IMG/VR virus record: IMGVR_UViG_3300036770_006414 | Location: 7,189 to 71,188 of that record | Origin: a virus | Direction: 5' to 3' (one strand) | Length of the DNA stretch: 64,000 nt | Part shown: one piece after another, positions 15,180 through 30,666 of the stretch | Layout: each line of letters starts with the position of its first letter | Position numbering within the stretch: the stretch's first letter is position 1 | The notes under the pieces: model-generated | Databases searched by the model: none | Told to the model about the DNA's origin: nothing | Seen by the model: the letters and a program-made list of their open reading frames with translations, nothing else | Program-made: the position numbers and the translations under genes

Positions 15180-15217
15180 GCCTGGAGGGTAGAGGAATTG
15201 CCCTTTCCCCTCCAGAC
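15180..15217 (+). repeat. family-B start-linked hairpin
   Basis: GCCTGGAGGG...CCCCTCCAGAC, then an A-tract; 14 nt to ATG 15232. Confidence 0.75.
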
Positions 15218-15231
15218 CAAAAAAAAACAGC

Positions 15232-15570
15232 ATGGAATACGCAGTATCAGCATTTTTGACATTAACCCCAATGCTTGGATGGTGGACCTTCGAACAGCCC
15301 ATGCATGCTACAATGATCTGTGGAGAGGCCACCTCGGAGATCATAGATGTACGAATTGAATGCGACGGAAAGACCATCACGGTTGAGTACGACAACAGAA
15401 TACAGGAGTTTGTTGCACCACCTGTAACTAATTTCAGGGATAAGACATACGGCTTCTTGCAAAACGGCCAGGCCACGGCCACGATAGGATTCGATGGGAG
15501 AATCGTAGACTTTCAAATGTATGTCCAGAATTCAGACGAGATTAACTGGACAATAAATCAACGAAGATGA
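15232..15570 (+). CDS. hypothetical protein (possibly exported)
   Basis: 112 aa with a hydrophobic N-terminus. Confidence 0.6.
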   Translation: MEYAVSAFLTLTPMLGWWTFEQPMHATMICGEATSEIIDVRIECDGKTITVEYDNRIQEFVAPPVTNFRDKTYGFLQNGQATATIGFDGRIVDFQMYVQNSDEINWTINQRR

Positions 15571-15896
15571 TATTTATATCAAGCCCCTATAGCCACCAGG
15601 AGCAGCTTGTTAGGCAAAAGCGCTACGAGGCAGTAAGCAATTACGCCGCAAAGCTAATCAAGGACGGAGAGGTTGCTTTCTCTCCTATTACGTACGGGCA
15701 TATAATTGTCGAGTTCGACAATACGCTGCCCACCGACTGGCTGTTTTGGGAGAAGTTCTGCTTCGACTTTCTTAGGTATTCAACCTCTATGCATGTGCTC
15801 ATGCTTGACGGATGGGAGGCCTCCAAGGGAGTAGATACCGAAATCACAATGGCCAAGCTTCTCAATATTCCAATCACTTACGTAATGCCGAAGTAA
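15567..15896 (+). CDS. DUF1937-like / nucleoside deoxyribosyltransferase-fold protein
   Basis: IFISSPYSH...FSPITYGH...W.FW...LMLDGWEASKGVDTEI..AK.LNIPI. Confidence 0.75.
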   Translation: MIFISSPYSHQEQLVRQKRYEAVSNYAAKLIKDGEVAFSPITYGHIIVEFDNTLPTDWLFWEKFCFDFLRYSTSMHVLMLDGWEASKGVDTEITMAKLLNIPITYVMPK

Positions 15897-16423
15897 TGAA
15901 AAATGTATTTTTGCTGAAAGGAGATAGAATTGTTGCTGACAGAGCAATCATAACGTTCGAAGAGGGGAAGAGGGTCTATTCCTTCGAGAACTTTATACCC
16001 CACAGTACTTTCCATGAGACAGGTCTTGAGGATATGGGCGTGATTGTTTTCGAGAGTTTCGAAGAGTGTGTCGAATACATCAACGAAAAGATCGACGAGC
16101 ATACGCGGGCTGCCGAAGCTCTCAAGGTTGCCAAGCAGCAGGCCGACTTCACAAAGATGTTTTCCTGGAACGGCGCTGTGGCCGAGTACTTTATTCCCAA
16201 GTACAACCCATCACGGCCAGGCTGCGCCGATAGGCCACCGACGGCAAAAAACGTCATCAAGCTCAAATCCGACGGCGATCATTTTGCTATTGAAGATCTG
16301 CTTGACCTGACGCTGGTAGCCCTTCGGGAATCTGTAGCCAGTCGCGACGAGAGCGATTACGACAGTAAACTAGATTTGGCTGTCCGAATGTTGGAGGAAG
16401 CCCGCGAAAACATCAAGCTATGA
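15896..16423 (+). CDS. hypothetical protein
   Basis: TAATG-coupled start at 15896. Confidence 0.6.
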   Translation: MKNVFLLKGDRIVADRAIITFEEGKRVYSFENFIPHSTFHETGLEDMGVIVFESFEECVEYINEKIDEHTRAAEALKVAKQQADFTKMFSWNGAVAEYFIPKYNPSRPGCADRPPTAKNVIKLKSDGDHFAIEDLLDLTLVALRESVASRDESDYDSKLDLAVRMLEEARENIKL

Positions 16424-16905
16424 GTTGGGCCTCAGAAAAAGCGTGGAGCGTACTCGCTGACCACGCCCACAACGTATCCTGGTGGTGGTACAAGTATCTT
16501 TCCTACTCTAACGGCCTGTGGCTACTCTTTAAGCATAGACCAGAGCCTGGGGAAACCTGGGGGGCATTGATTCTACATAACGAGCGATCAAGCGCCCCGC
16601 GGGAGCAAGAAGTTTTTAACCTCAAAAATGTAATGGCCATGGCGGTTTCTGTGGGTTCTTTTATTACGACTTCACATATCCTCAAAGAGTTTATCTCCGA
16701 GACCCAAAAATCCCTCGAGGACTCTACTCTGACGGATACAAAACGAGCAGAGCTCGAACTGAATTTAAAAGCTCTTAATCATGCGTACAGCGTAGTTATG
16801 TTGTACGCCATGGACATGGAGATATTACCTAAAAGCGAGGTGCTTGCCGAAGATAATCAGCTGGACCTCTTTAACTCTGAAGAATATGCTAGTCAACAAG
16901 ATTGA
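16420..16905 (+). CDS. hypothetical protein
   Basis: 161 aa, ATGA-coupled. Confidence 0.6.
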   Translation: MSWASEKAWSVLADHAHNVSWWWYKYLSYSNGLWLLFKHRPEPGETWGALILHNERSSAPREQEVFNLKNVMAMAVSVGSFITTSHILKEFISETQKSLEDSTLTDTKRAELELNLKALNHAYSVVMLYAMDMEILPKSEVLAEDNQLDLFNSEEYASQQD

Positions 16906-17197
16906 GTCATTATTGAACCTTCTCCCTCAAGACGTCCTAGAGGAGAACAAAGAGCGTATTGAAAGGGCTCTGGATGTACTATCTGGGAAGAAGAGCAAGT
17001 TTGAGGTCGGAGACTCCGTATGTCACTACCTGGTCGGAACGGTAACAGAGGTGGATGAGAACATGATCTTTGGGGTTAGCGTAAAGTTCATGGCGACCAA
17101 CACACAGGTGACGTTTACCCATGATGGAAAACTCTGGGATACCGACGAGGAGCAAAGCCTCTGGCATACTCAAGACTTTATTGAAAAATTCTCCTAG
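16886..17197 (+). CDS. hypothetical protein (KOW/SH3-like C-terminus)
   Basis: KFEVGDSV...GTVTEVD...VSVKF. Confidence 0.55.
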   Translation: MLVNKIESLLNLLPQDVLEENKERIERALDVLSGKKSKFEVGDSVCHYLVGTVTEVDENMIFGVSVKFMATNTQVTFTHDGKLWDTDEEQSLWHTQDFIEKFS

Positions 17198-17271
17198 CGG
17201 AGTAATTGTGCGGATGGGTGGGGCCAGGATTTTTGCTCAGTAAATGGCTCTGCCCATACCGTATAAAAAAA

Positions 17272-17739
17272 ATGAAAATGCAGAATCTAGAGATCGTTTT
17301 AAAATTCGTTGGTGACGTCTACGGCCATACCTATGCACTTCCTTTATCTCTTGTTGATCAGTTTCGCGACGACAACAGGAATGTGTACACCGAGGAGTAC
17401 AAGAAAGTACCAACGAAGTATCTAAAGTACAGGGTAGACCTTAACAAGGAATACAGACTGGTTGTGCCCATAGAGGAGGTAAACAGGGTACTTGTCCTGG
17501 CGAGGCCCTGGCTCAACAAAGATATGCCATACAGAGCTATAGACATGTCTGGAGAGGATTGGTACTTCCCAGAAAAGCCCTTTATGAATAAAAAATGGTG
17601 GATGCTTAACGACGATATGCTAGCCTGGGAATCTACCGATGGGGATATCTCCGAATCGTGGGCCAAGATGTACTGGGAGCAAAGCCTTCAGAGCTTCGAG
17701 GAGTACTCCGAAATCAGCCAAAAAGTAATTATCAAGTAA
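17272..17739 (+). CDS. RPW-domain family protein 1 (start 17272 or 17278)
   Basis: RPWLNKDMPYRAIDMSGEDWYFPEKP...WAKMYWEQSLQ. Confidence 0.7.
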   Translation: MKMQNLEIVLKFVGDVYGHTYALPLSLVDQFRDDNRNVYTEEYKKVPTKYLKYRVDLNKEYRLVVPIEEVNRVLVLARPWLNKDMPYRAIDMSGEDWYFPEKPFMNKKWWMLNDDMLAWESTDGDISESWAKMYWEQSLQSFEEYSEISQKVIIK

Positions 17740-18200
17740 TGGAGCGGACTAGCTTTTTTATCAGGCCCTGGCAATTTGCTGGCTGGCAGTACCGAGCGGT
17801 TGACAAAAGCGGCAACGTTTACTACTTTAGGGAGTTACCGATGTTGAGTAATGGCGCTTGGTTTCCCGCCAAGCATTACCTACAGTGCGAGTACGGAGGC
17901 AGGTACAACAAGGAATGGTCCGAGCGCAACTTTGATAGAAGCATGCATACCATGGATATTTACAACGAGGCCGTCGCCAGTCATCTGGATTTGCTAAAGA
18001 AAGACCTTTCTCCTCCTGACGGATACATTCAATGTGAGCATTACTGTATACACGGCATGAATTACGCGATACCCGATACCCTGGCTGGAGAGTTTAGGAA
18101 AGACGTAAAAGAACTCGCATCGATGGACCTATACGACAAGTACAACCAGTATTTTCTGGAGGAAGGCAATATCATCTATATTAAAGCCGTTAAGCAATAA
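17739..18200 (+). CDS. RPW-domain family protein 2
   Basis: RPWQFAGWQYRAVDKSGNVYYFRELP; TAATG-coupled. Confidence 0.7.
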   Translation: MERTSFFIRPWQFAGWQYRAVDKSGNVYYFRELPMLSNGAWFPAKHYLQCEYGGRYNKEWSERNFDRSMHTMDIYNEAVASHLDLLKKDLSPPDGYIQCEHYCIHGMNYAIPDTLAGEFRKDVKELASMDLYDKYNQYFLEEGNIIYIKAVKQ

Positions 18201-18211
18201 AAAACAAGATC

Positions 18212-18439
18212 ATGACAAGAAACGATTTGCTGGAGCTCATTATCCCTCAGAAAGAGGCATCGATTACTTTCTCCTTCAAAGAAGGCGATAATGGTGTAAT
18301 TACGGATGCCAAAGGAAACTCGGAGGACATCAAGAAAGTGATCCTCTGCGTTCTGTTGGGCAACCCAACGATGCTGGATATCTTTACCAAGGCCGCTACC
18401 CTGGTTACTGAAATCATGGGCGAAGGGATGGAAGATTAG
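18212..18439 (+). CDS. hypothetical protein
   Basis: 75 aa with an A-rich leader. Confidence 0.6.
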   Translation: MTRNDLLELIIPQKEASITFSFKEGDNGVITDAKGNSEDIKKVILCVLLGNPTMLDIFTKAATLVTEIMGEGMED

Positions 18440-18445
18440 TGAAAC

Positions 18446-18484
18446 GTCGGGAGGGAGAGAGTTGATTGCCCTTTCCCTCCAGAC
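18446..18484 (+). repeat. family-B start-linked hairpin
   Basis: GTCGGGAGGG...CCCTCCAGAC; 14 nt to in-frame TTG 18499. Confidence 0.75.
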
Positions 18485-18498
18485 CAAAAAACCAACCA

Positions 18499-18726
18499 TT
18501 GAATAAGCACGAGTTCTTAGCCCGCCCCTGGCAGTACCCAGCCTTTGATTACAGAGCTGTAGACGAGGATGGTACGGAGTACTACTTTACACGAACCCCA
18601 GAGATTGTTGGTGGGGCCTGGATACAGGAATACTTGCGTGGCAAGAAGTTCTGGAGAGTAGAGGTATCAGAATTATGGAGGGAAAGTCTACAGAGTAAAG
18701 AGGATTACAAATTATTAATCAACTAG
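18499..18726 (+). CDS. RPW-domain family protein 3
   Basis: RPWQYPAFDYRAVDEDGTEYYFTRTP...WRESLQ. Confidence 0.7.
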   Translation: MNKHEFLARPWQYPAFDYRAVDEDGTEYYFTRTPEIVGGAWIQEYLRGKKFWRVEVSELWRESLQSKEDYKLLIN

Positions 18727-18730
18727 CACA

Positions 18731-18982
18731 ATGGAAAACGATATCAGGATTAGACCATGGGAGCACCCAGAACTCCCGTACAGGGCCCTCGACCAGGATG
18801 GGGCTGATTACTACTATGCCGACGAGCCATATACCAGTATCGGCGTATGGCGTACTACCGACTGGCAGTACCGCGGTTCTAATGCAACTGTAAAACAGGC
18901 ACAGATGGAGTGGGCTGCCGAAAACTGGAAAAACAGCCTTCAAACATGGGCTGAGTATCTGAAAGCAATAAACCAATTATGA
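18731..18982 (+). CDS. RPW-domain family protein 4
   Basis: RPWEHPELPYRALDQDGADYYYADEP...WAAENWKNSLQ. Confidence 0.75.
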   Translation: MENDIRIRPWEHPELPYRALDQDGADYYYADEPYTSIGVWRTTDWQYRGSNATVKQAQMEWAAENWKNSLQTWAEYLKAINQL

Positions 18983-19365
18983 ATATAAACGATGTTTTGC
19001 TAAGGCCGTGGAAGTTTCCAGAGTATCCGTACAGGGCGATCGATCAAGATGGATGCGACTATTACCATCGGCACAAGCCCAAGAGACTCGATGAGGAAGA
19101 GTGGATTGCTGATCTTCGGGGTTGGAACCAAAACAAGTGCCTGGAATACGGTGGCAAAGTCTCCAGCGACTGGGCAAAAGAATGGGAGGAGAGCCTCCAA
19201 ACTCGTGAGGATTACTTAAAAATTAAAATCAAATCAATGAATATCGGAGACAGCGTAGAGTTAGTCTACAGGGGAGAAAAGGTACAAGGGGTAATAACAG
19301 AGATTGCCTCGACCTATTACGTGGTTACCGACTCGCTCGGTAAGGAAACATACGTCGAGATATGA
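18979..19365 (+). CDS. RPW-domain family protein 5
   Basis: RPWKFPEYPYRAIDQDGCDYYHRHKP...WAKEWEESLQ plus an SH3/KOW-like tail. Confidence 0.75.
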   Translation: MNINDVLLRPWKFPEYPYRAIDQDGCDYYHRHKPKRLDEEEWIADLRGWNQNKCLEYGGKVSSDWAKEWEESLQTREDYLKIKIKSMNIGDSVELVYRGEKVQGVITEIASTYYVVTDSLGKETYVEI

Positions 19366-19580
19366 TTTCATTGGCCCTCCTTCTCATACTTGTTCCAATG
19401 GCAGCCATGGAGATGTACGCCGTTATTCTGGGGATCGTTTGTATCGCCTCTCTCCTCGAGACGTTACACCAAACACAGAGCGATCGACACACTCCTTGGC
19501 TGCTTTTATTACTAGTATCGCTGGCAAAGCACGGATTAATAGCGCTAATAGCTATACTTACTTGCGGAGACATACAATAA
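19362..19580 (+). CDS. small membrane protein
   Basis: Highly hydrophobic 72 aa. Confidence 0.55.
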   Translation: MISLALLLILVPMAAMEMYAVILGIVCIASLLETLHQTQSDRHTPWLLLLLVSLAKHGLIALIAILTCGDIQ

Positions 19581-19619
19581 CAGCCAACCAGTACCGTTAT
19601 ACTGTAAAACAACAAGACC

Positions 19620-19883
19620 ATGAAAAGCGAAATCCACGAGAAAGTTTACGGCCAAATAGAATGGAAGCATCCTCGCCTTGAATACAGAGCTGCTGATAAA
19701 AATGGCTACATTTGGTATTACGAATCTCTGCCAGTTCGCGACTTCGATAAGTGCGAGTGGAAAAGTTACGGAACCTCAGATTTCCAGATACACACAGGAG
19801 AAACTGCCAACAGCCAAGACCTCTGGAAGGATTCGCTTCAGACTTTCCAACAGTATCAAGAATCAAAAAAAACAATATCATGA
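19620..19883 (+). CDS. RPW-domain family protein 6
   Basis: EWKHPRLEYRAADKNGYIWYYESLP...LWKDSLQ. Confidence 0.75.
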   Translation: MKSEIHEKVYGQIEWKHPRLEYRAADKNGYIWYYESLPVRDFDKCEWKSYGTSDFQIHTGETANSQDLWKDSLQTFQQYQESKKTIS

Positions 19884-20311
19884 AGAGCAACCACAAGGAC
19901 ATTTACGGCAACATGCCCTGGAAGTATCCAAACCTCAAGTATCGCGCTGTCGACAAGAACGGAAGCGTCTTTTACTATGAAAAGCGCCCAGTAATACGAT
20001 TCGATCACTGGGACCGCATAGAAGATGACTTCGAATTCGTAGAGGATATTGAAGGCATTATCCAAGACGTCATCGGTCGCACCCTCTGGGAACTCAGCCT
20101 GCAGACTTACGATCAGTACTGCCTGGAAAAAGAAGGGTACGAGAGCGAGTATGAGCGCGAGCGCAGGCTCTGGGTCGAGCAGACGATGAGCCGCTTGGTT
20201 GAAATTGTGCCTCCAGTTGCAGCTGATGCCTATTGCCTGTATTACGATCAGATGCGCGATGCGATCAAGCAGTACGCTATTGAGCAACGAAACCTGAATC
20301 AAGAAATCTGA
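19880..20311 (+). CDS. RPW-domain family protein 7
   Basis: MPWKYPNLKYRAVDKNGSVFYYEKRP...LWELSLQ; ATGA-coupled start at 19880. Confidence 0.75.
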   Translation: MKSNHKDIYGNMPWKYPNLKYRAVDKNGSVFYYEKRPVIRFDHWDRIEDDFEFVEDIEGIIQDVIGRTLWELSLQTYDQYCLEKEGYESEYERERRLWVEQTMSRLVEIVPPVAADAYCLYYDQMRDAIKQYAIEQRNLNQEI

Positions 20312-20317
20312 TAACAG

Positions 20318-20350
20318 GTCTGGAGGAGATAAGCCCTTTCCCCTCCAGAC
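20318..20350 (+). repeat. family-B start-linked hairpin
   Basis: GTCTGGAGGAG...CCCCTCCAGAC; 16 nt to ATG 20367. Confidence 0.75.
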
Positions 20351-20366
20351 GCAAAAAAAGTATAGA

Positions 20367-20549
20367 ATGATAATCTTAGCCGTTTTATTATCGCCCCTTA
20401 TTGGCATTCTTCTATACACCGCTGCATACAGATACATGTACAAAGAAACCGAGGACTTGTTATTGTCGACTTGGTTCGGCATAGTAGCCATCTGGTTTTT
20501 GATCGTAATATCGTGTTTGATCTTTTCGATTCCATGGAAAATAAACTAA
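20367..20549 (+). CDS. small membrane protein
   Basis: Two hydrophobic segments. Confidence 0.6.
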   Translation: MIILAVLLSPLIGILLYTAAYRYMYKETEDLLLSTWFGIVAIWFLIVISCLIFSIPWKIN

Positions 20550-20753
20550 TTGCCAATGTCAATATTACTAGGAGTACTCATAGGTTCGATGGTTGGCTTC
20601 CAGGCTGCCGACAAGATTCATGAAGACGCCCTCGATTACGGATACAGCAGAAGCACGGCTTTAGTAGCCGCCATGACTGTGTATGCCCTAATCATAGCAT
20701 GGATAGCCACACTGTTTTGGGCATTTGTTGAAACCATCAAATACATATTTTAA
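20550..20753 (+). CDS. small membrane protein
   Basis: Two hydrophobic segments. Confidence 0.6.
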   Translation: MPMSILLGVLIGSMVGFQAADKIHEDALDYGYSRSTALVAAMTVYALIIAWIATLFWAFVETIKYIF

Positions 20754-20755
20754 TC

Positions 20756-20935
20756 ATGGCAATATTATTGTCTTTGTTCATAATTATTGGATCCTGGTTA
20801 TTGTTAAATGCAGCTGGAGAGGCACTGGAAGAGTCTGGCATCTTAAACATAACCTCGATTGCCCTAGTTATCGCAGGAGCATTGCTTACGTTAATCAACA
20901 TCACTTACTTGGCCAAGGGATTGGCAACAAATTAA
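20756..20935 (+). CDS. small membrane protein (59 aa, below the ORF track cutoff)
   Basis: Hand-translated MAILLSLFIIIGSWLLLNAAGEALEESGILNITSIALVIAGALLTLINITYLAKGLATN. Confidence 0.55.
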   Translation: MAILLSLFIIIGSWLLLNAAGEALEESGILNITSIALVIAGALLTLINITYLAKGLATN

Positions 20936-20944
20936 TAACAGCTA

Positions 20945-21733
20945 ATGAATAACAACAGCAAGGTGTCACCTTTGAAAAGACCATGGTTGCATCCAGAGTA
21001 CCCATGGCGGGCCGTAGACAAAGGATCGCGATTCTTCTACTACAAGCGAAAACCAGAAAAAGGCACAGTATGTTGGTGGGGCAGCAGCGAGTTTATAGAA
21101 ACATCCCCAACTGATGTAAATTGGGCCGAACAACACTGGGAATACAGCCTGCAGTCGATCGAAGACTGGAAGCGAATGAGGCTAGACGGCAAAAACGTTC
21201 TCGAAAGACCATGGGAAGAAGATCCTCAAGTGTGCCCGTACCGCGCAGTCGATCGTAACGGAAGGACGTATTACTACGAGCACGAACCTTGGATTATGGC
21301 AGAAGAAGGCCTCTTCGCAGAGTCTAAATCGGGAGTCATAACCGATGGCTTGCCAATCGATGAATACTGGGCTGCCGAAAACTGGCAGTTTTCCATGCAG
21401 AATTACCAAGAGTACCTTAATCTTATTCAAACCTCTCCTCTCGAGACAAAAAACAATATCATGAATGACGCAAGAAGAAAGTACTTCCAACACCCAATGT
21501 GGGGAGTGCTATTGAAAGGGAAAGACGGGATGTTGTACAACACCAACAACGACGAAGTGTATATCGACGATCCAGAAAATCTCGAAACCGTCTACCAGTA
21601 CGAGCGCCGCCTGTTTGTCGAAGAGGCCATACTTCGAATAATTGGCAACGGAGACAAGCCAGGACTCAACGACGCCAGAGTCTTGTCAGACCTTTACGAT
21701 AACCTCCAGGAGGTACTCAAAGAAAAGCCATGA
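20945..21733 (+). CDS. RPW-domain family protein 8 (two tandem domains)
   Basis: RPWLHPEYPWRAVDK...WAEQHWEYSLQ and RPWEEDPQVCPYRAVDRNGRTYYYEHEP...WAAENWQFSMQ. Confidence 0.8.
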   Translation: MNNNSKVSPLKRPWLHPEYPWRAVDKGSRFFYYKRKPEKGTVCWWGSSEFIETSPTDVNWAEQHWEYSLQSIEDWKRMRLDGKNVLERPWEEDPQVCPYRAVDRNGRTYYYEHEPWIMAEEGLFAESKSGVITDGLPIDEYWAAENWQFSMQNYQEYLNLIQTSPLETKNNIMNDARRKYFQHPMWGVLLKGKDGMLYNTNNDEVYIDDPENLETVYQYERRLFVEEAILRIIGNGDKPGLNDARVLSDLYDNLQEVLKEKP

Positions 21734-21924
21734 AGCGAATCATCAAGCTGATATTCACCATCAAGTACGTACTCCGCGGCAAAGACCCTGGAGACTGCCT
21801 AATACGGGTGCGTAACGCCCACTACCTTTTTGAGGCGATGTGGGACGAGATATGGACAGAGAAACCTCCTATTCCTCAACAAAAACTATATCAAGATGTC
21901 TTTAGTAATTCGCGTAATCCTTAA
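21730..21924 (+). CDS. hypothetical protein
   Basis: 64 aa, ATGA-coupled. Confidence 0.5.
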   Translation: MKRIIKLIFTIKYVLRGKDPGDCLIRVRNAHYLFEAMWDEIWTEKPPIPQQKLYQDVFSNSRNP

Positions 21925-22282
21925 GGTCGTTCTGGTCGCCATGCTCGTTTACGGCCTGTTTGCCTGCCAGCCCGACCACACCAGAGACATGCCCAAGCGG
22001 GCCATGTTTCTGGACTCCCTCAAAGTCGCCAGAGAGGAGAGCAATAAGACCAGGCGACGACTTGATTCACTCCAACAACAAATCGATGACCAAGACGATT
22101 TTATTGATAGCTATAATAGCGGCATCATGCCAAAAAGACGCTATGGAAGTAGTAGAAGTAGCTACCCAACAAGCACAACAAATTACTCGCGTCCAAGAGA
22201 TGCGTCGCCAAGTACGAGCCGATATGGAACGACGATCTCAACTTCGAGCAGAAGTAGCCGCCGCGCTGGCCGCCACCGATAG
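21896..22282 (+). CDS. putative lipoprotein
   Basis: VILKVVLVAMLVYGLFA-C lipobox followed by a coiled-coil; likely ATG 21896. Confidence 0.5.
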   Translation: MSLVIRVILKVVLVAMLVYGLFACQPDHTRDMPKRAMFLDSLKVAREESNKTRRRLDSLQQQIDDQDDFIDSYNSGIMPKRRYGSSRSSYPTSTTNYSRPRDASPSTSRYGTTISTSSRSSRRAGRHR

Positions 22283-23337: not shown

Positions 23338-23359
23338 CATGATTCTGATTTGTGTTTTC

Positions 23360-23474: not shown

Positions 23475-23542
23475 AGTGAGTTACGTGCCCACATAATGTT
23501 GAGTGAGTTGCGAGCTTGTGTATTATATAGTGAGTTACGTGC
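23475..23542. repeat. three 14-bp direct repeats with 27-bp period (iteron-like)
   Basis: AGTGAGTTACGTGC at 23475 and 23529; AGTGAGTTGCGAGC at 23502. Confidence 0.8.
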
Positions 23543-23825: not shown

Positions 23826-23856
23826 TTTGGAAATATAAAAAACGTTTGTACCTTTG
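23826..23856 (+). promoter_or_regulatory. Bacteroidota sigma70 promoter (consensus match)
   Basis: TTTG (23826-29), 19-nt spacer, TACCTTTG (23849-56). Confidence 0.8.
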
Positions 23857-23933
23857 TACCGTTGCAAACAACAAACGGCAAAAGCGCCGTTTCCCAATTA
23901 GGCAAAAATATTTCAAAAATTTTTTGAAAAAAG

Positions 23934-23965
23934 CTTGCACAATTGGGGAAACGTTTGTACCTTTG
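23934..23965 (+). promoter_or_regulatory. second tandem Bacteroidota sigma70 promoter
   Basis: CTTG, 20-nt spacer, TACCTTTG (23958-65). Shares AAACGTTTGTACCTTTGT with the first promoter. Confidence 0.75.
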
Positions 23966-23989
23966 TTTCAACAACAAAATGAAAAAACG

Positions 23990-24250
23990 ATGAAAAAATT
24001 TTACAACTTTTTGCTTAACATCCCTACGGGGATGGCTTTCGGCAAGCTCGCTACCTACATAGCCAGCTACCACCAGCAGGCAGATAGCCTGCAATCATTT
24101 TTAACGTTTTTGGCCGTAGTTGCCTGTTTAGCGTTATTAGCAGCTCCCTTCTGTACTCCGTTTATTACGGATTGCGAAGACGAAGACTACCCAACAACGC
24201 AGGCCATTGCAGCCTTCGTTTTGGCTGCAGCCGTAGTTGTTGCCCTGTAA
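23990..24250 (+). CDS. membrane protein, first gene after the tandem promoters
   Basis: ATG 23990; hydrophobic segments. Confidence 0.65.
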   Translation: MKKFYNFLLNIPTGMAFGKLATYIASYHQQADSLQSFLTFLAVVACLALLAAPFCTPFITDCEDEDYPTTQAIAAFVLAAAVVVAL

Positions 24251-24288
24251 GGTAAGCGCTGGGTTCGACTCCCAGCCAGGGCTCTAAA
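24242..24288 (+). ncRNA. family-A tRNA-elbow-like element 1
   Basis: GCCCTG-taaggtaagc-GCTGGG-TTCGACT-CCCAGC-CAGGGC-tCTAAA. Confidence 0.8.
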
Positions 24289-24297
24289 TTTTTGAGT

Positions 24298-24549
24298 ATG
24301 AAAAAGAGGATACCCATGCCATCTCACCAGTACTGGAAGGACTGGTTTGATGACCTGCAAGAGCGGACTGGATTCAGGCTTATGCCTAGAGCTCTGGCAG
24401 TTATTATCAACATCGCGGAGGAGATAGACCCTCCGCATGAGGACTTCGAGCTTCTGTATAATATGCACACCATTGGGGGAGACCTCGATGGGGAGCTATA
24501 TACAATAGATAATGACGAGTACCACCAATGGTGGCTCGTTAGCCGATAG
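24298..24549 (+). CDS. hypothetical protein (paralog of 24617-24940)
   Basis: MPS..YW..WF..GFRLMPRA...MHTIGG. Confidence 0.7.
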   Translation: MKKRIPMPSHQYWKDWFDDLQERTGFRLMPRALAVIINIAEEIDPPHEDFELLYNMHTIGGDLDGELYTIDNDEYHQWWLVSR

Positions 24550-24557
24550 CCCCTCTC

Positions 24558-24606
24558 CTCTCCCGACGGTCCTAGTAGGGGTTCGATTCCTCTAGGGAGA
24601 GCTAAA
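24558..24606 (+). ncRNA. family-A tRNA-elbow-like element 2
   Basis: CTCTCCC-gacggtcctag-TAGGGG-TTCGATT-CCTCTA-GGGAGAG-CTAAA. Confidence 0.85.
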
Positions 24607-24616
24607 TATTAATGAT

Positions 24617-24940
24617 ATGGCAGTTGTGAACATACGCGAAAGCGGCTTGTCCAGCCGCCTTGAGCGAATGCCATCCGTAGACAAATGGATAGCATACTTC
24701 TCCAAGCGGAGAGAGGAGGACGGCTTTGAGCTGACCCCTCGAGCCAAGGACAAGCTGCAATTTCTGCTCATCGAGGCTGACGAGCAGGATTTCGACTACT
24801 ACTTGGATGATCTGATAAGCCTCCATTGCATAGGCGGCACAACCGAGAAGGATTACCTTCTAATTGTCGACGAGGAGGAATTAGGTATATATATATGCGA
24901 CCTAGACTCCTACATGGCTACCTATCACTACAAACGATAG
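24617..24940 (+). CDS. hypothetical protein (paralog of 24298-24549)
   Basis: MPS..KW..YF..GFELTPRA...LHCIGG. Confidence 0.7.
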   Translation: MAVVNIRESGLSSRLERMPSVDKWIAYFSKRREEDGFELTPRAKDKLQFLLIEADEQDFDYYLDDLISLHCIGGTTEKDYLLIVDEEELGIYICDLDSYMATYHYKR

Positions 24941-24948
24941 GCTGCCCA

Positions 24949-24996
24949 CCACCTCAACGGTTCCTCGCGGGTTCGATTCCCGCGGAGGTGGCTAAA
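24949..24996 (+). ncRNA. family-A tRNA-elbow-like element 3
   Basis: CCACCTC-aacggttcct-CGCGGG-TTCGATT-CCCGCG-GAGGTGG-CTAAA. Confidence 0.85.
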
Positions 24997-25006
24997 TTTT
25001 ACCGAT

Positions 25007-25285
25007 ATGGAACAAATTGTCAAGATGCCCGACCTAGTGCATCAATGGAGAAACTTTATCTACTTCGGGACGACTTCGAGCATGAAATTTCTGCCGATAG
25101 CGAGGCAGTGGTTGGACCAGCTGAATGACTCGGAGCGATTGGAACCAGTAAAAAAGGTGGCCGCACAAGCCGAGGCTATCATGAAACTACATGGCCTGCC
25201 TGCCATCTGTTTCGACGACGACGGCGTATACAGGCTAGTTGCCTACGAGGCAGGCTTTGGCCTCGAGCGCCTGACAAGGGTATAA
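25007..25285 (+). CDS. hypothetical protein
   Basis: 92 aa between two family-A elements. Confidence 0.7.
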   Translation: MEQIVKMPDLVHQWRNFIYFGTTSSMKFLPIARQWLDQLNDSERLEPVKKVAAQAEAIMKLHGLPAICFDDDGVYRLVAYEAGFGLERLTRV

Positions 25286-25292
25286 ACCCTTC

Positions 25293-25341
25293 CTCTCCCG
25301 ACGGTCTACACGTAGGTTCGACTCCTACGGGGAGAGCTAAA
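25293..25341 (+). ncRNA. family-A tRNA-elbow-like element 4
   Basis: CTCTCCC-gacggtctaca-CGTAGG-TTCGACT-CCTACG-GGGAGAG-CTAAA. Confidence 0.85.
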
Positions 25342-25351
25342 CAATACTGAT

Positions 25352-25723
25352 ATGACAATATTCCTTGGTGGCAGCTGGCCAGAGGCTGCCCAGAACTTGG
25401 TACGGGGGGCGTGGTGTGGCCTCTACGAAATACACTACCTTACTAAGAACGACGTCGTCGACCTTTCGTTCTGCCAGTACGACGACCCGAGCCCTAGGCT
25501 GGTCAAGAAACTAACCAACAGGTTACGCATTGTCAAGGCAGGCCAGCAATGGTTCAGCCTGAGACAAAACGGGAACGCGGTATTTTTATACCCGACGCCC
25601 GATTATAAATTCCTTTGCGAGTACCTCGATATGACGTTTGAAAGCTACGAGGATGCCCAAAAACACTTTCAAAGCGTGGAGGTGGCGGTCGAGCGGGGAG
25701 ATCTCGTCCCCATTGAAGATTAA
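25352..25723 (+). CDS. hypothetical protein
   Basis: 123 aa between two family-A elements. Confidence 0.7.
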   Translation: MTIFLGGSWPEAAQNLVRGAWCGLYEIHYLTKNDVVDLSFCQYDDPSPRLVKKLTNRLRIVKAGQQWFSLRQNGNAVFLYPTPDYKFLCEYLDMTFESYEDAQKHFQSVEVAVERGDLVPIED

Positions 25724-25733
25724 GTAGCCTGTT

Positions 25734-25780
25734 TTCCCCGACGGTCTTTGCGCGGGTTCGACTCCCGCGGGGGAGCTAAA
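25734..25780 (+). ncRNA. family-A tRNA-elbow-like element 5
   Basis: TTCCCC-gacggtctttg-CGCGGG-TTCGACT-CCCGCG-GGGGAG-CTAAA. Confidence 0.85.
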
Positions 25781-25790
25781 CTTTACCGAT

Positions 25791-26159
25791 ATGGAAAAAT
25801 GGAAAGCGTCGGACTACTTTGCCGACAACAGGGGCATCGTCCCTATGAAGGGAATGTTCCTATACAGACCAATGGGCGACGGATGTACCGAGTATAGGTA
25901 CATCAACAGCGTACAAGAAAGGGGTCTGCGCCCCAGAAAATACCTCGTAACCGTCGCAATAGACGACGAGGAACTATACGACCACCTAGACAGCTCCGAG
26001 ATGGAGGTGACAGGCGACGGACTCGAAAAAAACGTGGTGCGCGACTTGCAGGAGTACTTCCTCCGCAAGCGAGTAATTTACGCCGACGAACCCCACCCCA
26101 TGGAGGAATTCGAAGGGCTGTTTTTTACCCACGACGTGACCGAAATACCCTGCGAATAA
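25791..26159 (+). CDS. hypothetical protein
   Basis: 122 aa, acidic. Confidence 0.7.
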   Translation: MEKWKASDYFADNRGIVPMKGMFLYRPMGDGCTEYRYINSVQERGLRPRKYLVTVAIDDEELYDHLDSSEMEVTGDGLEKNVVRDLQEYFLRKRVIYADEPHPMEEFEGLFFTHDVTEIPCE

Positions 26160-26184
26160 CAAGCTGACATACAAGTTAAACAAC

Positions 26185-26231
26185 GTCTGGAGGGGATAGG
26201 CCTGCCAACGGGACACCCTTCCTCTCCAGAC
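26185..26231 (+). repeat. family-B start-linked hairpin
   Basis: GTCTGGAGGGGA...TCCTCTCCAGAC; 17 nt to ATG 26249. Confidence 0.75.
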
Positions 26232-26248
26232 CCAAAAACAACGCAGAT

Positions 26249-26785
26249 ATGAAACACGCATTTATTTGGGCTGACAAAAACGGCCTCAGCGGCAACCCTT
26301 GGGCTGATGGCTCACACGCATTGATAACCAAGGCAGCAACAACCAAAAAGGTAAAGGTAAACCCCAAGGCAATACACGACCTGATAACCCTTGCCTATTC
26401 AATAGACGAGGAGGCCGAGGTAGAAGCCCGAGCCTACCTTATGGATCGAGACTGGGTATTCAAAGAAGGCGGCAAAAAGTATTATATCGACCAGGACAAG
26501 GACGGTACAATATGGGCAGTAGAAGTAGGGAGGTTCCTCAACGAACCAGACCCCAACCGCCCTTGGGAATACAAAGACCTGGCCTTCCGATATATCGACG
26601 AGCAGGGGCGTGAATGGTACTCCAAGGCAGCACCAGTACGGTTCACAAAGTACAACCTCTGGACACACCACGAGGAGCGGCCAATGTTGCGCCAGTCAAC
26701 AGCAAAGCCTATACCAATGGGAGCACGCTGGACAGCAGCCAATTGGGCAAACAGCCTCCAGCACATACCAATAGAACTCGAATAA
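26249..26785 (+). CDS. RPW-domain family protein 10, fused to a 29613/29894-like domain
   Basis: C-terminal RPWEYKDLAFRYIDEQGREWYSKAAP...WTAANWANSLQ; N-terminal KVKVNPKAIHDL...RDWVF. Confidence 0.7.
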   Translation: MKHAFIWADKNGLSGNPWADGSHALITKAATTKKVKVNPKAIHDLITLAYSIDEEAEVEARAYLMDRDWVFKEGGKKYYIDQDKDGTIWAVEVGRFLNEPDPNRPWEYKDLAFRYIDEQGREWYSKAAPVRFTKYNLWTHHEERPMLRQSTAKPIPMGARWTAANWANSLQHIPIELE

Positions 26786-26792
26786 CCGAACC

Positions 26793-26829
26793 GTCGGGAG
26801 GCGAGAGGCGACCCCTTTACCCTCCCGAC
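26793..26829 (+). repeat. family-B start-linked hairpin
   Basis: GTCGGGAGG...CCTCCCGAC with a compensatory G-C pair; 14 nt to ATG 26844. Confidence 0.8.
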
Positions 26830-26843
26830 AAAAAACAAAGACC

Positions 26844-27116
26844 ATGTATATAGACTATTGGCCAACAGAAACAACAGAGCCAAACGAGGATGAACGTTGG
26901 CTACCATTTGCCGATACTTGGCTAGATGCTTGCGAAGAGATTGCAAGCAAGCGCAGATACTCCGCAGAAGCCCGCAAGATAGCAAAGGCCTATTTAATGG
27001 CGTCGAGCGACGAGCGAGAGAAGGAGCTGACAGACGAATTAGAGCTATTGCCAGACATAGGTACAGGCAGACGCCTTCGGGGAGGGTTGTTTGAAATTGA
27101 ATATCAAGCTGTTTAA
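26844..27116 (+). CDS. hypothetical protein
   Basis: 90 aa. Confidence 0.65.
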   Translation: MYIDYWPTETTEPNEDERWLPFADTWLDACEEIASKRRYSAEARKIAKAYLMASSDEREKELTDELELLPDIGTGRRLRGGLFEIEYQAV

Positions 27117-27126
27117 AAATACCGCC

Positions 27127-27540
27127 ATGAGTGTAATAGATGCCAGCAGCCTTGGGCTGCGCTGGACAGAGCTGGAGCTGCCGTTCTCTTTGAAATACGG
27201 CCTCGTATATACGGAGGAGCCAGTGACCCTCTATATATACGACGGGGACTTTGTACAGCGGGTAAAACCGCGGAGGTACGAGCTGGAGGCTGCAATAACA
27301 GCCGACAAGGCTAATGTTGAGGCTGGCCTCGGGGTAAGCCTTGAGAACCTGTTTGCCTACAGTTCAGACCTTGAGCTGGTACAGGTATTACAATACAACA
27401 AGCCGCTGGATTGGTTCTGGCGGGTTACGAAGGGGGAAGGGTGTCCGTTTATTTATACTTGGCCGATGGTACTCGGGGAATTTTGCCACCAATTTAAAAT
27501 AGACCCACAATGGATCGAAGAGTTAATGCGGGAGGCATAG
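27127..27540 (+). CDS. hypothetical protein
   Basis: Likely ATG 27127. Confidence 0.65.
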   Translation: MSVIDASSLGLRWTELELPFSLKYGLVYTEEPVTLYIYDGDFVQRVKPRRYELEAAITADKANVEAGLGVSLENLFAYSSDLELVQVLQYNKPLDWFWRVTKGEGCPFIYTWPMVLGEFCHQFKIDPQWIEELMREA

Positions 27541-27689
27541 CCCTCGCTGTATTGGCCTTTGCTTTGGCCTCGGCTGGTACGTTTAGGTACTGGCTGGTAG
27601 ATAGCAGGGCATATTTGCTCTGCACGATAGTACAACTGGTGGCAGCTTTTGTCGCCATAGTACTCGCTGAGGTACACGAAAGCAAATAA
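27510..27689 (+). CDS. small membrane protein (59 aa, below the ORF track cutoff)
   Basis: Hand-translated MDRRVNAGGIALAVLAFALASAGTFRYWLVDSRAYLLCTIVQLVAAFVAIVLAEVHESK. Confidence 0.55.
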   Translation: MDRRVNAGGIALAVLAFALASAGTFRYWLVDSRAYLLCTIVQLVAAFVAIVLAEVHESK

Positions 27690-28059
27690 TATACGGGGTT
27701 CGGGTAGCGATACAGTCAACTCGCAAGTATCCGCTCGGACCCCCTCGAAACAAAATTCTAAAACAGGTATTCTATGGCGTGAAAATTACTCGTATTGTAT
27801 TCTGTTTGCAAGCATAAGCCGTTGTTACTGCGGCGCTTGCGCAGATCTACTGGCTCAACAGGGGTTAATTGGAGGGGGTTATTGGTTGTGGGTGCTGTTG
27901 GTTGGGCTGTGGGTTGTGTTAATTGGTCTAGAGGGTAAAGGTGCTGGGTCTATTCGGGGTACTTTGGAAGCCTCGGGTTGTACCAACAGGCCGAAATACC
28001 CAGCGACAGGGGCAATAAGCCTGCCCACATGTCGTTATGTATAAGAAAAAAATATAATT

Positions 28060-28302
28060 ATGAATATCACAGAGCGTTTATTGGGGCTAATTAGCCCCGC
28101 TCCCAGCAAGGACTTGAGTGTCCTTGTTGACAGGCAGTACCTAGCCGAGCGTGCTGCTGAAGCAATTGCCAACGGGGAGGACTTTGTTGTGCCCCATTAC
28201 TACCGTTATGCCTCGGGGTCTTTCCATCGGAGGAAGAAGGACGCCCAACACAACGCGAAGCGGATACAGATTGGTAAATTCAAATACTACTACGCGCAAT
28301 GA
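28060..28302 (+). CDS. hypothetical protein
   Basis: 80 aa with an A-rich leader. Confidence 0.6.
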   Translation: MNITERLLGLISPAPSKDLSVLVDRQYLAERAAEAIANGEDFVVPHYYRYASGSFHRRKKDAQHNAKRIQIGKFKYYYAQ

Positions 28303-28736
28303 GAACAGAAGCAGAAGTGCGCAGGTTCCTGCGCGATCAAGGCATTACCAAAGAGGTAATCCAAGGTATATATGGGCAGAAGCAAGCCCACTTGGCTGGG
28401 TCGGACAGGCCTGTATACCTTGTTGCTATGGGAGCGGTTGTTGATCTCGTAATGAACGACCCTCAGAAGCTCTCGGACTTTATGCATTATTGCTCCGAGC
28501 TTTTGATCGAGTCGTATACTGAATGGCCGCTTGGTATTATACAGCACCTTATGACCAGCGATGCTGGCAGGATAGCTGTTACTGACGCCTTGAGAGAAAA
28601 GGGCGAGCTTGGCGGGCTCATTGATTATTACCTGACCATGGAGGGCGTGGAGATGCTCTTCGATGGGGAGTACTACGGGGAGGTCACAATTGCTTCATCA
28701 GGTGGGGCATATATTTACCACGTCTTTATTCAATAA
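28299..28736 (+). CDS. hypothetical protein (paralog of 28740-29186)
   Basis: TEWPLGIIQHLMTSDAG...FDGEYYGEV. Confidence 0.7.
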   Translation: MRTEAEVRRFLRDQGITKEVIQGIYGQKQAHLAGSDRPVYLVAMGAVVDLVMNDPQKLSDFMHYCSELLIESYTEWPLGIIQHLMTSDAGRIAVTDALREKGELGGLIDYYLTMEGVEMLFDGEYYGEVTIASSGGAYIYHVFIQ

Positions 28737-28739
28737 ACT

Positions 28740-29186
28740 ATGACGACATCAGAAAAGCATGCCCGCGGGCTCATCAAAAAGTGGGGCTTAGACCCAGACG
28801 AGGTTGTCGAACGCTTGCACGGCGAGCGTGAGGCTCGCATCAAGGCGGGCGATACAGAACTGTATTTTATTCGGTACTCCGAGTTGCGCAACCGACTGTT
28901 TTGCAGGCCTAACTGGCTGCCTAAATTAATAGAGGACGCGGGCGAGGATGTGGTATCTTATGTGACCAAATGGCCTATTGAGGTGGTTACCTACCTCCTC
29001 TCGACGGAGGAAGGCATCGCGGTTGCTGCCAAGGGTATAAAGAGGCTGAGTTGTCATTATGCTTTGTATGACGCCCTTGTCAATCGGGGCAGGCATTTGA
29101 AGTACTTTGATGGATTGGCCGCTGGCGAGGTATGGGGTATTGACAGGCATTTAATGTTCCTAGACGTAGATGCCGTTAATATTTGA
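28740..29186 (+). CDS. hypothetical protein (paralog of 28299-28736)
   Basis: TKWPIEVVTYLLSTEEG...FDGLAAGEV. Confidence 0.7.
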   Translation: MTTSEKHARGLIKKWGLDPDEVVERLHGEREARIKAGDTELYFIRYSELRNRLFCRPNWLPKLIEDAGEDVVSYVTKWPIEVVTYLLSTEEGIAVAAKGIKRLSCHYALYDALVNRGRHLKYFDGLAAGEVWGIDRHLMFLDVDAVNI

Positions 29187-29300
29187 TAGGGGCAATTGTA
29201 GGGTCCTTGACGGGGATAAACCCTACGCTGCAAAGAAAAACCAATACAGCCCAATTGTGCGCTGGATTCGTACTATACTGGGGCTTGGTATTTAAATAAC

Positions 29301-29332
29301 GTCGGGAGGGAAAGGGTGCGAGTACCTCCCGC
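29301..29332 (+). repeat. family-B start-linked hairpin (degenerate)
   Basis: GTCGGGAGG...CCTCCCGC; 14 nt to ATG 29347. Confidence 0.65.
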
Positions 29333-29346
29333 TAAAAAATTACGCA

Positions 29347-29616
29347 ATGAAAGACGCAATCACAGACGCAATAATGAATCGGAGGTGGATACATTCCGAC
29401 TGGCCTTGGAGAGCCATTGACAAAAATGGGCATGATTGTTACTTTAAGGAAAGGCCTCTTAAAGGCGATATAGTATGGCTGCCAGCTCATCGGGGCGGTA
29501 ACTTTGTCACCGCGTCTCGCATCAGGGGTCGCTATGAAAACGAAGAGCAATGGCTGGCCGAAAACTGGGACAAAACAGTACAACACATCAACGAATTCAA
29601 CAACAATAATAAATGA
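29347..29616 (+). CDS. RPW-domain family protein 11
   Basis: RRWIHSDWPWRAIDKNGHDCYFKERP...WLAENWDKTVQ. Confidence 0.75.
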   Translation: MKDAITDAIMNRRWIHSDWPWRAIDKNGHDCYFKERPLKGDIVWLPAHRGGNFVTASRIRGRYENEEQWLAENWDKTVQHINEFNNNNK

Positions 29617-29897
29617 AAAAATACGTAATTAAGAAATCCGTAGAGTTCGCTATGCGTGCTGTTGTACGGGACCTGATCCAAGACTCTTGGAAGGGAAGAT
29701 TGTCTCTCAATGACGATATCATCTCGAGTATGAATGCCATTATCTGGGAGGCAACCAATGAAACCAGAGAGGCGGCGGTTAACAAGTTATTTTACGACAA
29801 GGAGCGCCCATGGGTGTTCCAAGAAAATTTCAATTACTTCCGCTTGGGGGTTGAAGATGGCAATATTGTCGCAATACCAGCAAACAAAGAACAATGA
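29613..29897 (+). CDS. hypothetical protein (paralog of 29894-30178)
   Basis: GRLSLNDDII...LFYDKERPWVF. Confidence 0.7.
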   Translation: MKKYVIKKSVEFAMRAVVRDLIQDSWKGRLSLNDDIISSMNAIIWEATNETREAAVNKLFYDKERPWVFQENFNYFRLGVEDGNIVAIPANKEQ

Positions 29898-30178
29898 AAT
29901 ACTTACTGACGACCTACGAGCAGGGTCGTAACAACTGGGCTGCCGTAGCCAACATGCTGCTCGAGCAGAACGACGCTGGAAAGATAAGGCTTAACCCCGA
30001 GGTAATCCTGGAGCTGGATACCCTGGCTAACGACCAGGACATCTACTCGGACGAGTTCTTGGAGACGGTCGACACCATCTTTGCTAACAAGAACCGCCCA
30101 TGGGTGTTTTCGCTCAACGACAACAAGTATAAACTAACCCTCGACACTGACGGCTTCTGCGCCGTTGTTGTCGAATAA
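29894..30178 (+). CDS. hypothetical protein (paralog of 29613-29897)
   Basis: GKIRLNPEVI...IFANKNRPWVF. Confidence 0.7.
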   Translation: MKYLLTTYEQGRNNWAAVANMLLEQNDAGKIRLNPEVILELDTLANDQDIYSDEFLETVDTIFANKNRPWVFSLNDNKYKLTLDTDGFCAVVVE

Positions 30179-30189
30179 AACAACAGCCA

Positions 30190-30627
30190 ATGAACGCATA
30201 TATTTTGCGAGAGAAGTACGGTGTGCCAGAGGACTTCGATGGTCTCGGCAGCTACATCGCAGAGAACCACGCGGTATCCTTCAAAATAGAGATGCTCTCC
30301 GAAAACATCGACAGCCGTATGGGCACAATGCCTAACTACCTTGTCAGCTCTCCCAAGGAGCGGGTAAGCTGGCTCAAGGCAGAAAACGACTTCGATGCAT
30401 GGCTCATGGCTCGCGCTGCAACTGGCGACGATACAGTTCTAAAGGTCGGGGACCGAGTGATTGACATACGGCTTGTACATGGCAGAGTCGTTGCGGAGGA
30501 GTTCGAGGACGGTAAGATGTGGGTCGTTATACAGCCCGACGGTGCAGAGCGAGTGACCAAGGTCCTTATCGACGGGCGTATTACCCCTACCTGTAACTAC
30601 AGACGCTGGAGAAAAGTAATCCAATAA
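30190..30627 (+). CDS. hypothetical protein (KOW/SH3-like C-terminus)
   Basis: LKVGDRVID...GRVV. Confidence 0.6.
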   Translation: MNAYILREKYGVPEDFDGLGSYIAENHAVSFKIEMLSENIDSRMGTMPNYLVSSPKERVSWLKAENDFDAWLMARAATGDDTVLKVGDRVIDIRLVHGRVVAEEFEDGKMWVVIQPDGAERVTKVLIDGRITPTCNYRRWRKVIQ

Positions 30628-30629
30628 CC

Positions 30630-30666
30630 GTCTGGAGGGGAAAGGTTGGTCCTCTCTCCTCCAGAC
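30630..30666 (+). repeat. family-B start-linked hairpin
   Basis: GTCTGGAGGGGA...TCTCCTCCAGAC; 15 nt to ATG 30682. Confidence 0.8.

Follow-up and report, generated by a model that had tools for sequence, protein, structure and literature searches.

The subject of this report is a family of hairpins, designated family B, found in a 64,000-nucleotide stretch of viral DNA (the window) that corresponds to bases 7189-71188 of the 71,188-base IMG/VR record IMGVR_UViG_3300036770_006414, which is rated 75% complete. The hairpins have the form GTCKGGAGG...CCTCCMGAC and occur in seven copies of 33-47 nt, all on the + strand, located in intergenic spacers of 51-89 nt, and each ends 13-17 nt ahead of the start codon of the next gene.

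The TerL protein encoded by the record is ~41% identical to that of Flavobacterium psychrophilum FpV-type phages and also matches, among 161 phage records, those of Bacteroides crAss001-type and Cellulophaga phages, and the source is therefore identified, by sequence relationship, as an uncultured, incomplete crAss-like phage whose host is probably a member of the Bacteroidota. In the gene model, which was obtained with a simple open reading frame (ORF) caller, genes are directed leftward in 1-6000, rightward in 6000-42450 and leftward again from 42494. The rightward block encodes a sliding clamp, thymidylate synthase, primase, helicases and dCMP deaminase, together with four tandem DNA methylases and many small ORFs without known domains. 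The seven hairpins are found within 15.1-30.7 kb among such small ORFs, of which one of 26 scanned reached the Pfam cut-off (DUF1937) and none has a known function. An initial annotation of this DNA had proposed that three of the seven hairpins directly precede genes of a family with an RPW segment, and the genes concerned (18499, 26249 and 29347) are indeed paralogous by blastp (E 2e-5 to 2e-4); the other four downstream genes are unrelated.

Anatomy of the family-B hairpins

All seven hairpins described in the initial annotation are present (Table 1), and a covariance model (R2) searched over the 71-kb record detected them with E values of 1.3e-13 to 1.6e-9 as the sole strong matches on the + strand, the next + strand matches being far weaker. 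The hairpins are G+C-rich, with predicted folding energies of -13 to -27.5 kcal/mol, and the numbers of predicted pairs are, in order along the window, 13, 15, 11, 18, 14, 8 and 15, mostly in one continuous helix. In an alignment of the seven copies (A2), which are paralogous and belong to one genome, 86.1% of the cells at 16 pairs are standard pairs, a proportion that falls to 46-60% if the 3′ partner is shifted by 1-3 columns. Of the 16 pairs, six show no change and in three (five cells) both sides have changed. Six of the nine basal pairs are invariant, that is, sequence has been kept here and not pairing alone. The compensatory T-A to G-C change previously pointed out in copy 26793 is real and is found in 29301 as well, column pair 6/46 (basal pair 4) being UA in four copies, GC in these two and a G/A mismatch in 18446. 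In one relative (X5, see below) a T at 18449 repairs the mismatch of hairpin 18446.

The gap between the arms varies from 15 to 29 nt, and the unpaired tips differ in both length and sequence. Such a variable gap is easier to reconcile with a folded hairpin than with a dimer site on duplex DNA; a dimeric protein site of this kind was dropped as a candidate on account of the 14-nt variation, as was CRISPR-repeat mimicry on account of the variable length of the hairpins. The purine-rich 5′ side and pyrimidine-rich 3′ side to which attention had been drawn earlier give no information on the strand, because the reverse complement has the same property.

Table 1. Hairpins, related elements and rearranged junctions, in window coordinates (E, E value with covariance model R2; RPW, gene of the RPW family).
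Feature	Position	Strand	Length (nt)	Upstream side	Downstream side	E	Remarks
Hairpin 1	15180..15217	+	38	4 nt past TGA of ORF 14804-15175	14-nt A-rich leader (15218-15231) to ATG 15232	6.8e-13	
Hairpin 2	18446..18484	+	39	6 nt past TAG of ORF 18212-18439	14-nt leader to TTG 18499 (RPW)	1.4e-12	G/A mismatch at basal pair 4
Hairpin 3	20318..20350	+	33	6 nt past TGA	16-nt leader to ATG 20367	4.1e-12	
Hairpin 4	26185..26231	+	47	25 nt past TAA	17-nt leader to ATG 26249 (RPW)	4.3e-12	Branched tip
Hairpin 5	26793..26829	+	37	7 nt past TAA	14-nt leader to ATG 26844	5.1e-13	G-C for T-A at basal pair 4
Hairpin 6	29301..29333	+	33	5 nt past stop	13-15-nt leader to ATG 29347 (RPW)	1.6e-9	Weakest copy, 8 predicted pairs; G-C at basal pair 4
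Hairpin 7	30630..30666	+	37	2 nt past TAA	15-nt leader (CTAAAT...) to ATG 30682	1.3e-13	
Candidate degenerate eighth copy	6566..6657	+					Arms GTCTGGAGG / CCTCTAGAC, ~74 nt between
Candidate 3′-arm relic	14382..14398	+					CCCTTTCCCCTCATGAC, 2 mismatches to the arm common to 15180 and 20318
Family A	24250-24297	+			Gene 24298		
Family A	24558-24601	+			Gene 24617		
Family A	24949-24991	+			Gene 25007		
Family A	25293-25336	+			Gene 25352		
Family A	25735-25776	+			Gene 25791		
Family A	32422-32462	+			Gene 32477		
Joint in X7, X13	20356>20554				15-nt leader to ATG 20556		Gene 20367-20549 lost
Joint in X5	26839>27124				15-nt leader		Gene 26844-27116 lost
Joint in X10, X7	30672>31154				14-nt leader		Gene 30682-31143 lost
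Joint in X5	15221>26844				14-nt leader		No gene lost; 15180-like hairpin before gene 26844

None of the seven hairpins is followed by a T-run, an A-rich tract being found 3′ of the stem instead, and none is among the 28 terminator-like sites detected by a terminator scan of 13500-33000, which upholds the earlier view that they are not terminators on either strand. Canonical hairpin-plus-T-run terminators are located on the + strand at 13675-13689 and 23361-23383, and the genes immediately after both carry neither a family-B hairpin nor an element of family A, a second structured family that is described below. The hairpins therefore lie inside transcription units and not at their heads, from which a role on the transcript is inferred, and the gene layout together with the flanking terminators suggests that they are contained in a polycistronic transcript. 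No TAnnTTTG (-7) element was detected in or beside any copy, and no sigma-70-like match overlaps a hairpin spacer; one 9-of-12 match begins at ATG 29347, downstream of copy 29301.

Position ahead of the start codon

The hairpin-to-start spacings proposed in the initial annotation (14, 14, 16, 17, 14, 14 and 15 nt) are reproduced in six copies, the sixth having been measured at 13 nt (13-15 nt, depending on the end assigned to the weak basal pairs of 29301). A start codon does follow each hairpin, as had been noted, that after 18446 being TTG rather than ATG. At positions -13, -12 and -11, respectively, A is found in 100, 100 and 100% of the seven family-B genes, 67, 100 and 100% of the six family-A genes, and 50, 67 and 70% of the 54 other rightward genes. 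G is nearly missing at -15 to -6, and C occurs at -15 in 86% of family-B genes and 67% of family-A genes compared with 9% of the others. Shine-Dalgarno (SD)-like motifs precede none of the seven family-B genes, one of the six family-A genes and five of the 54 other rightward genes.

In Flavobacterium johnsoniae, according to Baez (2019), an A-rich motif is located at -11 to -14, translation is increased by A-12 and A-13, and a contact of ribosomal protein bS1 with -12 to -15 is proposed. The starts downstream of the hairpins agree with the features of SD-less initiation in Bacteroidia given there (enrichment of A at -11 to -14, no SD and low structure); the predicted unpaired probability of -14 to +5 is 0.71 for family-B genes vs 0.58 for the 54 others (one-sided Mann-Whitney p = 0.013). 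The "A-tract" that follows each hairpin is thus the host-type A-rich ribosome-landing signal general to this phage and to Bacteroidia, and the spacing is fixed because the hairpin abuts the 5′ edge of this A-rich ribosome-binding region. Accordingly, the proposal that family B is a start-associated signal with the same spacing as family A stands, whereas the spacing rule cannot be regarded as a property of the hairpin alone, the A-rich motif being general in the 54 other genes. A split or bridged SD role for the GGAGG of the 5′ arm was dropped, as this sequence is paired and lies ~40 nt from the start and as the ribosomes of Bacteroidia are reported to be blind to SD sequences.

The same slot is occupied elsewhere in the region by the six copies of family A, which are placed 6-11 nt past a stop codon and 14-15 nt ahead of a start codon and are followed by CTAAA. 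Each is modelled as a 7-bp acceptor-like stem, a short linker in which ACGGT is conserved, and a T-arm with an invariant GGTTCGAYTC, one copy matching the T-arm of tmRNA; although ARAGORN called no tRNA in the window, family A is, by this predicted fold, a tRNA-like minihelix. A tRNA-shaped minihelix is a natural substrate of RNase P and RNase Z, and the family-A elements look like RNase P/Z punctuation signals between early genes. Since these enzymes suit such a minihelix, RNA processing is the simplest function common to families A and B, and the presence of a T-loop and an acceptor-like stem in the identical slot indicates recognition at the RNA level.

Parts of the region were found in public sequencing runs of eight studies, and contigs of four runs (X5, X7, X10 and X13), one of which is an RNA library (X10), were compared with 14000-33000; the joints and differences described are among those listed in this comparison, and leader lengths after joints include inserted letters. 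These relatives gain and lose genes directly 3′ of the hairpins while the leader stays at 14-15 nt. At four rearranged junctions the leaders measure 15, 15, 14 and 14 nt (Table 1), so that the earlier expectation of a conserved position relative to start codons in related genomes is borne out. The hairpin itself is retained at joints 20356>20554, 26839>27124 and 30672>31154; its coverage at 15221>26844 is not documented. In X5 and X10 the only part in common with the window around one copy is 26179/26182-26270, which covers the hairpin together with its leader and the opening 22 nt of the ORF, and the flanks on either side are unlike. Duplication or deletion in relatives is seen for family-A cassettes too (26160>25735, 24305>24555 and 24620>24964).

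Function of the hairpins and rival explanations

The interpretation tentatively favoured here is that family B is an intercistronic punctuation element of the sense RNA, concerned with processing, stability and presentation of the initiation region, and also a conserved island for cassette shuffling. The hairpins would ride in long rightward, probably early, polycistronic transcripts, each occupying the spacer from the stop codon of one gene to the Bacteroidia-type A-rich initiation region of the next. The stable, self-contained stem would direct an endonucleolytic cut into the neighbouring single-stranded leader, or protect the 3′ or 5′ end that such a cut leaves, and would keep the 13-17-nt A-rich leader unpaired for binding of the 30S subunit. 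The near invariance of the basal 9 bp suggests that a sequence-specific factor may read them. Family-A minihelices would do the same job in the same slot, presumably via RNase P and RNase Z. Being repeated and conserved, the module could in addition form an island between variable genes where accessory ORFs come and go.

Several observations weigh against this interpretation. Stems of 8-18 pairs are short for RNase III, and no RNase, RNA-binding or recombinase domain was detected by Pfam or PHROGs in ~50 + strand proteins. Covariation is modest, with three pairs changed on both sides, and against shuffled controls the observed values are not extreme (29/500 for the covariation score and 72/500 for percent paired); the basal pairs are uninformative on structure because most of them never vary. 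Sense and antisense folds are nearly equal in energy, which does not reveal an RNA strand and leaves a DNA hairpin possible; G-U pairs were equally uninformative on the strand. If, by analogy with phage phi14:2, a virion RNA polymerase (RNAP) transcribes the rightward module, the hairpins could have a transcription-level role. The RNA library is represented by contigs, which cannot show RNA ends, and no homologous element was found outside the lineage in the phage collection, IMG/VR or metagenomes at the sensitivities used, so that deep comparative support is lacking.

If the transcript is the level of action, cleavage need not be involved, and the hairpin could be an operator. A sequence-specific RNA-binding protein of phage or host origin, bound where the initiation region begins, would then repress or activate translation of a regulon of accessory genes. 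T4 RegA and the coat-protein operator provide models for translational control of this kind. The conserved sequence of the basal 9 bp, with six of nine pairs invariant, would suit such a protein, as would the location of the hairpin end at the 5′ edge of the region covered by the 30S subunit, near the putative bS1 contact at -12 to -15, and three paralogues among the seven downstream genes are what a regulon might contain. The remaining four genes are unrelated, however, the ~50 + strand proteins yielded no RNA-binding candidate by Pfam or PHROGs, and it is difficult to see how the same protein would recognise the tRNA-like family A that shares the slot; the operator is considered unlikely. 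Bolder is the proposal that the hairpins may be start signals of the crAss-like virion RNAP, that is, DNA-level promoters on an extruded or single-stranded template, as in N4, with starts in C-N-AAA just past the stem. In phage phi14:2 the rightward replicative module is early throughout and is transcribed by the virion RNAP gp66, which transcribes denatured DNA and for which a promoter motif is not known. The present phage encodes a leftward 3481-aa virion-type polyvalent protein (42494-52939, - strand) with an LPD23 domain, a weak ART-PolyVal match and a single DFDLD motif at residue 2187, DFDxD being the catalytic motif reported for crAss-like virion RNAPs; a stem equally stable on both strands and the excess of C at -15 in families A and B could likewise be read in favour of promoters. 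Yet the protein gave no BLAST match to the part of phi14:2 g065/g066 that was compared, the early 5′ ends of phi14:2 showed no common motif, genes after the canonical terminators must have another start signal since they carry neither element, and family A, by mimicking a tRNA T-arm and acceptor stem in the same slot, presents an RNA-level signal. The three hairpin promoters of N4 have 5-7-bp stems and 3-nt loops. N4 does resemble the present case in its giant virion-packaged RNAP, its early genes on one strand and its conserved upstream hairpins, but here there are at least seven stems, which are longer (8-18 pairs), have loops of variable length and sequence, and are located within units that canonical terminators delimit; a promoter role is considered unlikely, although as a rival it carries the same weight as the operator.

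Two further explanations were considered. Were the hairpins selfish or neutral palindromic repeats of the REP or MITE kind, or recombination scars, they would be tolerated only where initiation is unblocked, and this would accommodate the confinement of the family to this lineage in the collections searched, the candidate degenerate copies at 6566-6657 and 14382-14398, the indel breakpoints that adjoin copies, and the occurrence in unrelated bacteria of REP-like repeats with the same outer arms. It is nevertheless improbable that such a repeat would place all seven copies in a narrow slot 13-17 nt from a start codon with AAA at -13 to -11, return to a leader of 14-15 nt after rearrangements in relatives, be conserved where both flanks differ, and share its slot with a second, unrelated structured family. 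A G+C-rich stem 2-7 nt past the stop in six of the seven copies might instead be a U-less terminator or attenuator for a host or phage RNAP that grades expression along the operon, and the stem-loops of the PeSL (promoter-early stem-loop) cassettes of T4-type phages do act as terminators. Against this stand the lack of T-runs and of terminator-scan hits noted above and the possession by this genome of canonical hairpin-plus-T-run terminators at 13675 and 23361; efficient termination would moreover silence the downstream genes, because no promoter-like element fits in the 13-17 nt before them, and attenuation is thus regarded as very improbable.

A more far-reaching form of the punctuation model, which is rather unlikely, holds that the two families are interchangeable RNA modules fused to an SD-less A-rich landing site, forming portable expression cassettes cut from early transcripts of the virion polymerase, family A by host RNase P/Z and family B by a sequence-specific, possibly phage-encoded endoribonuclease. 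Such cassettes would be a phage version of mitochondrial tRNA punctuation, and the early 5′ ends of phi14:2 would lack a motif because they would be processed ends. The likeness to the mitochondrial system, where tRNA-shaped elements separate cistrons and could be cleaved by RNase P/Z, applies to family A only; family B shows no T-loop or acceptor mimicry and has no Rfam match.

The duplex at RNase III sites usually spans about two helical turns (roughly 20 bp). In T7, RNase III sites are intercistronic hairpins of a long early transcript, which is split at them into units of one to several genes. To judge by the gene layout, family B would share with these sites an intercistronic placement in a probably long early phage transcript and, if cut, would likewise leave a hairpin at the transcript end, but its stems of 8-18 pairs fall below the ~20 bp of a typical substrate and its basal stem is conserved in sequence. 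Stem-loops directly past a stop codon within an operon are also described for the selective RNA processing and stabilisation (SRPS) operons of Clostridium (PMC4423207, PMC8219983), where they are held to shield the upstream segment from 3′ exonucleases once cleavage has occurred; unlike family B, SRPS stem-loops and REP elements are not known to form one conserved sequence family or to keep a fixed distance to the next start.

The closest analogue is the PeSL cassettes of T4-type phages (Arbiol et al., 2010, PMC2839356; Comeau et al., 2014, PMC4122927). These are also short repeated intergenic cassettes with a stable stem-loop, concentrated where the genome is plastic and its small genes have no known function. 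They, too, follow the stop codon of one gene and precede the ribosome-binding site and start of the next ORF, and indels between close relatives map to them as the joints in contigs of four runs do here. PeSLs are defined, however, by a strong sigma-70-type early promoter, and because this defining promoter is missing from family B, where only 13-17 nt separate stem and start, family B is not a member of the PeSL family. The PeSL stem-loop is moreover a demonstrated terminator and the cassette ends in an SD sequence, whereas family-B stems have no T-run and are followed by the SD-less A-rich Bacteroidia motif, and the breakpoints observed for family B fall within the leader that follows one hairpin, not between two cassettes.

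Overall, the hairpins most likely punctuate long phage messages and mark sites of accessory-gene swapping. crAss-like phages are among the most abundant phages known, and the manner in which early genes of the virion RNAP are started, separated and translated in hosts that ignore SD sequences is poorly understood. Two compact, sequence-defined modules sit at the exact edge of the ribosome-binding region in this phage, and their positions survive the gain and loss of genes; the idea of regulatory cassettes as recombination islands is thereby extended from T4-type phages to Crassvirales. If the modules act as insulators, they could become expression parts for the engineering of Bacteroidota.

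Look-alikes and neighbouring features

A megablast search of 14000-32000 against 50,697 phage records gave no match, nor did copy 30630 with its flanks in blastn with a word size of 11 at E up to 10. Rfam yielded no match at gathering thresholds in the window and only chance-level matches at E up to 10 in 13000-33000. A scan of IMG/VR for the exact arms gave 62 loci, each with a single copy and all lacking the inner arms of family B. About 35 of these loci (L003, L010-L012, L017, L022 and ~30 more), on aquatic viral contigs, hold an unrelated recurrent 53-nt structured element that has the same outer arms GTCTGGAGG...CCCTCCAGAC enclosing an inner GGGGTCTGGAACCCC hairpin and is followed by AAAGGGACAGAAATG; its layout ahead of a start codon is similar, its inner sequence is unrelated to family B, and the six of 62 loci tested had no Rfam match. 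A pattern scan of JGI metagenome contigs gave 58 loci, none family-B-like. Another recurrent hairpin, GTCTGGAGGCCGGCAAAACGGCCTCCAGAC, with GGGCCGAAGTGT before it and ACAAAA after it, is present at L074, L076-L078, L081, L085 and ~15 other metagenome loci, again with an inner sequence unrelated to family B.

The search for relatives with TerL yielded no more than two short contigs (5.7 and 8.2 kb), while ORFs 26249 and 34662 had no match in IMG/VR and ORF 22418 none in metagenome contigs. A scan of genome contigs for a host returned, among the at least 120 matches listed, only unrelated REP-like repeats, mostly in Chloroflexota and Actinomycetota; two single matches among those listed were in Bacteroidota and gave no host lead. 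In the first 50 kb of phi14:2, folding of 14 long spacers revealed no repeated family, one hairpin ending 15 nt before g036.

Within the window, the sites at 6566-6657 and 14382-14398 may, from their sequences, be decayed members of family B. The former has no adjacent start codon, lies upstream of a canonical terminator (6727-6754) and scores a covariance E of 0.08-0.5, which is not significant, and the latter overlaps the ATG of ORF 14394-14693, a matching 5′ arm not being seen. The next-best match to R2 is on the - strand at 63566-63621 (E ~2e-6), where a family-B-like hairpin followed by GTAAAAAC lies inside a plausible 161-aa ORF (63298-63783, - strand). It lacks a start codon at the distance typical of family B and may be either an internal element or a match by chance.

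The four N6/N4 DNA methyltransferase genes (9427-11955, + strand; 208, 223, 207 and 204 aa) are paralogous and tandem, neighbours overlapping or abutting. The small-protein family with the segment (R/D)PW...D.DG..(Y/F) has + strand members at 18499-18726, 22418-23002, 26249-26785, 29347-29616, 29613-29897 and 29894-30178, and further paralogue pairs are formed by 31154/31533 (41% identity) and 24298/24617; judged by these similarities, the plastic region evolves through local duplication.

The terminator at 23361-23383 is followed by a 600-bp non-coding region (23384-23990) with C-rich and G-rich runs, four AAAACGTTTG repeats (23764-23957) and two TACCTTTG elements (23849 and 23958) that fit the Bacteroidota -7 consensus, and this region may, to go by its sequence, be a promoter cluster or a replication origin. 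The X13 contig diverges from the window at 23808, and its unaligned part before this point contains a T-loop-like string, GGTTCGAATCC.

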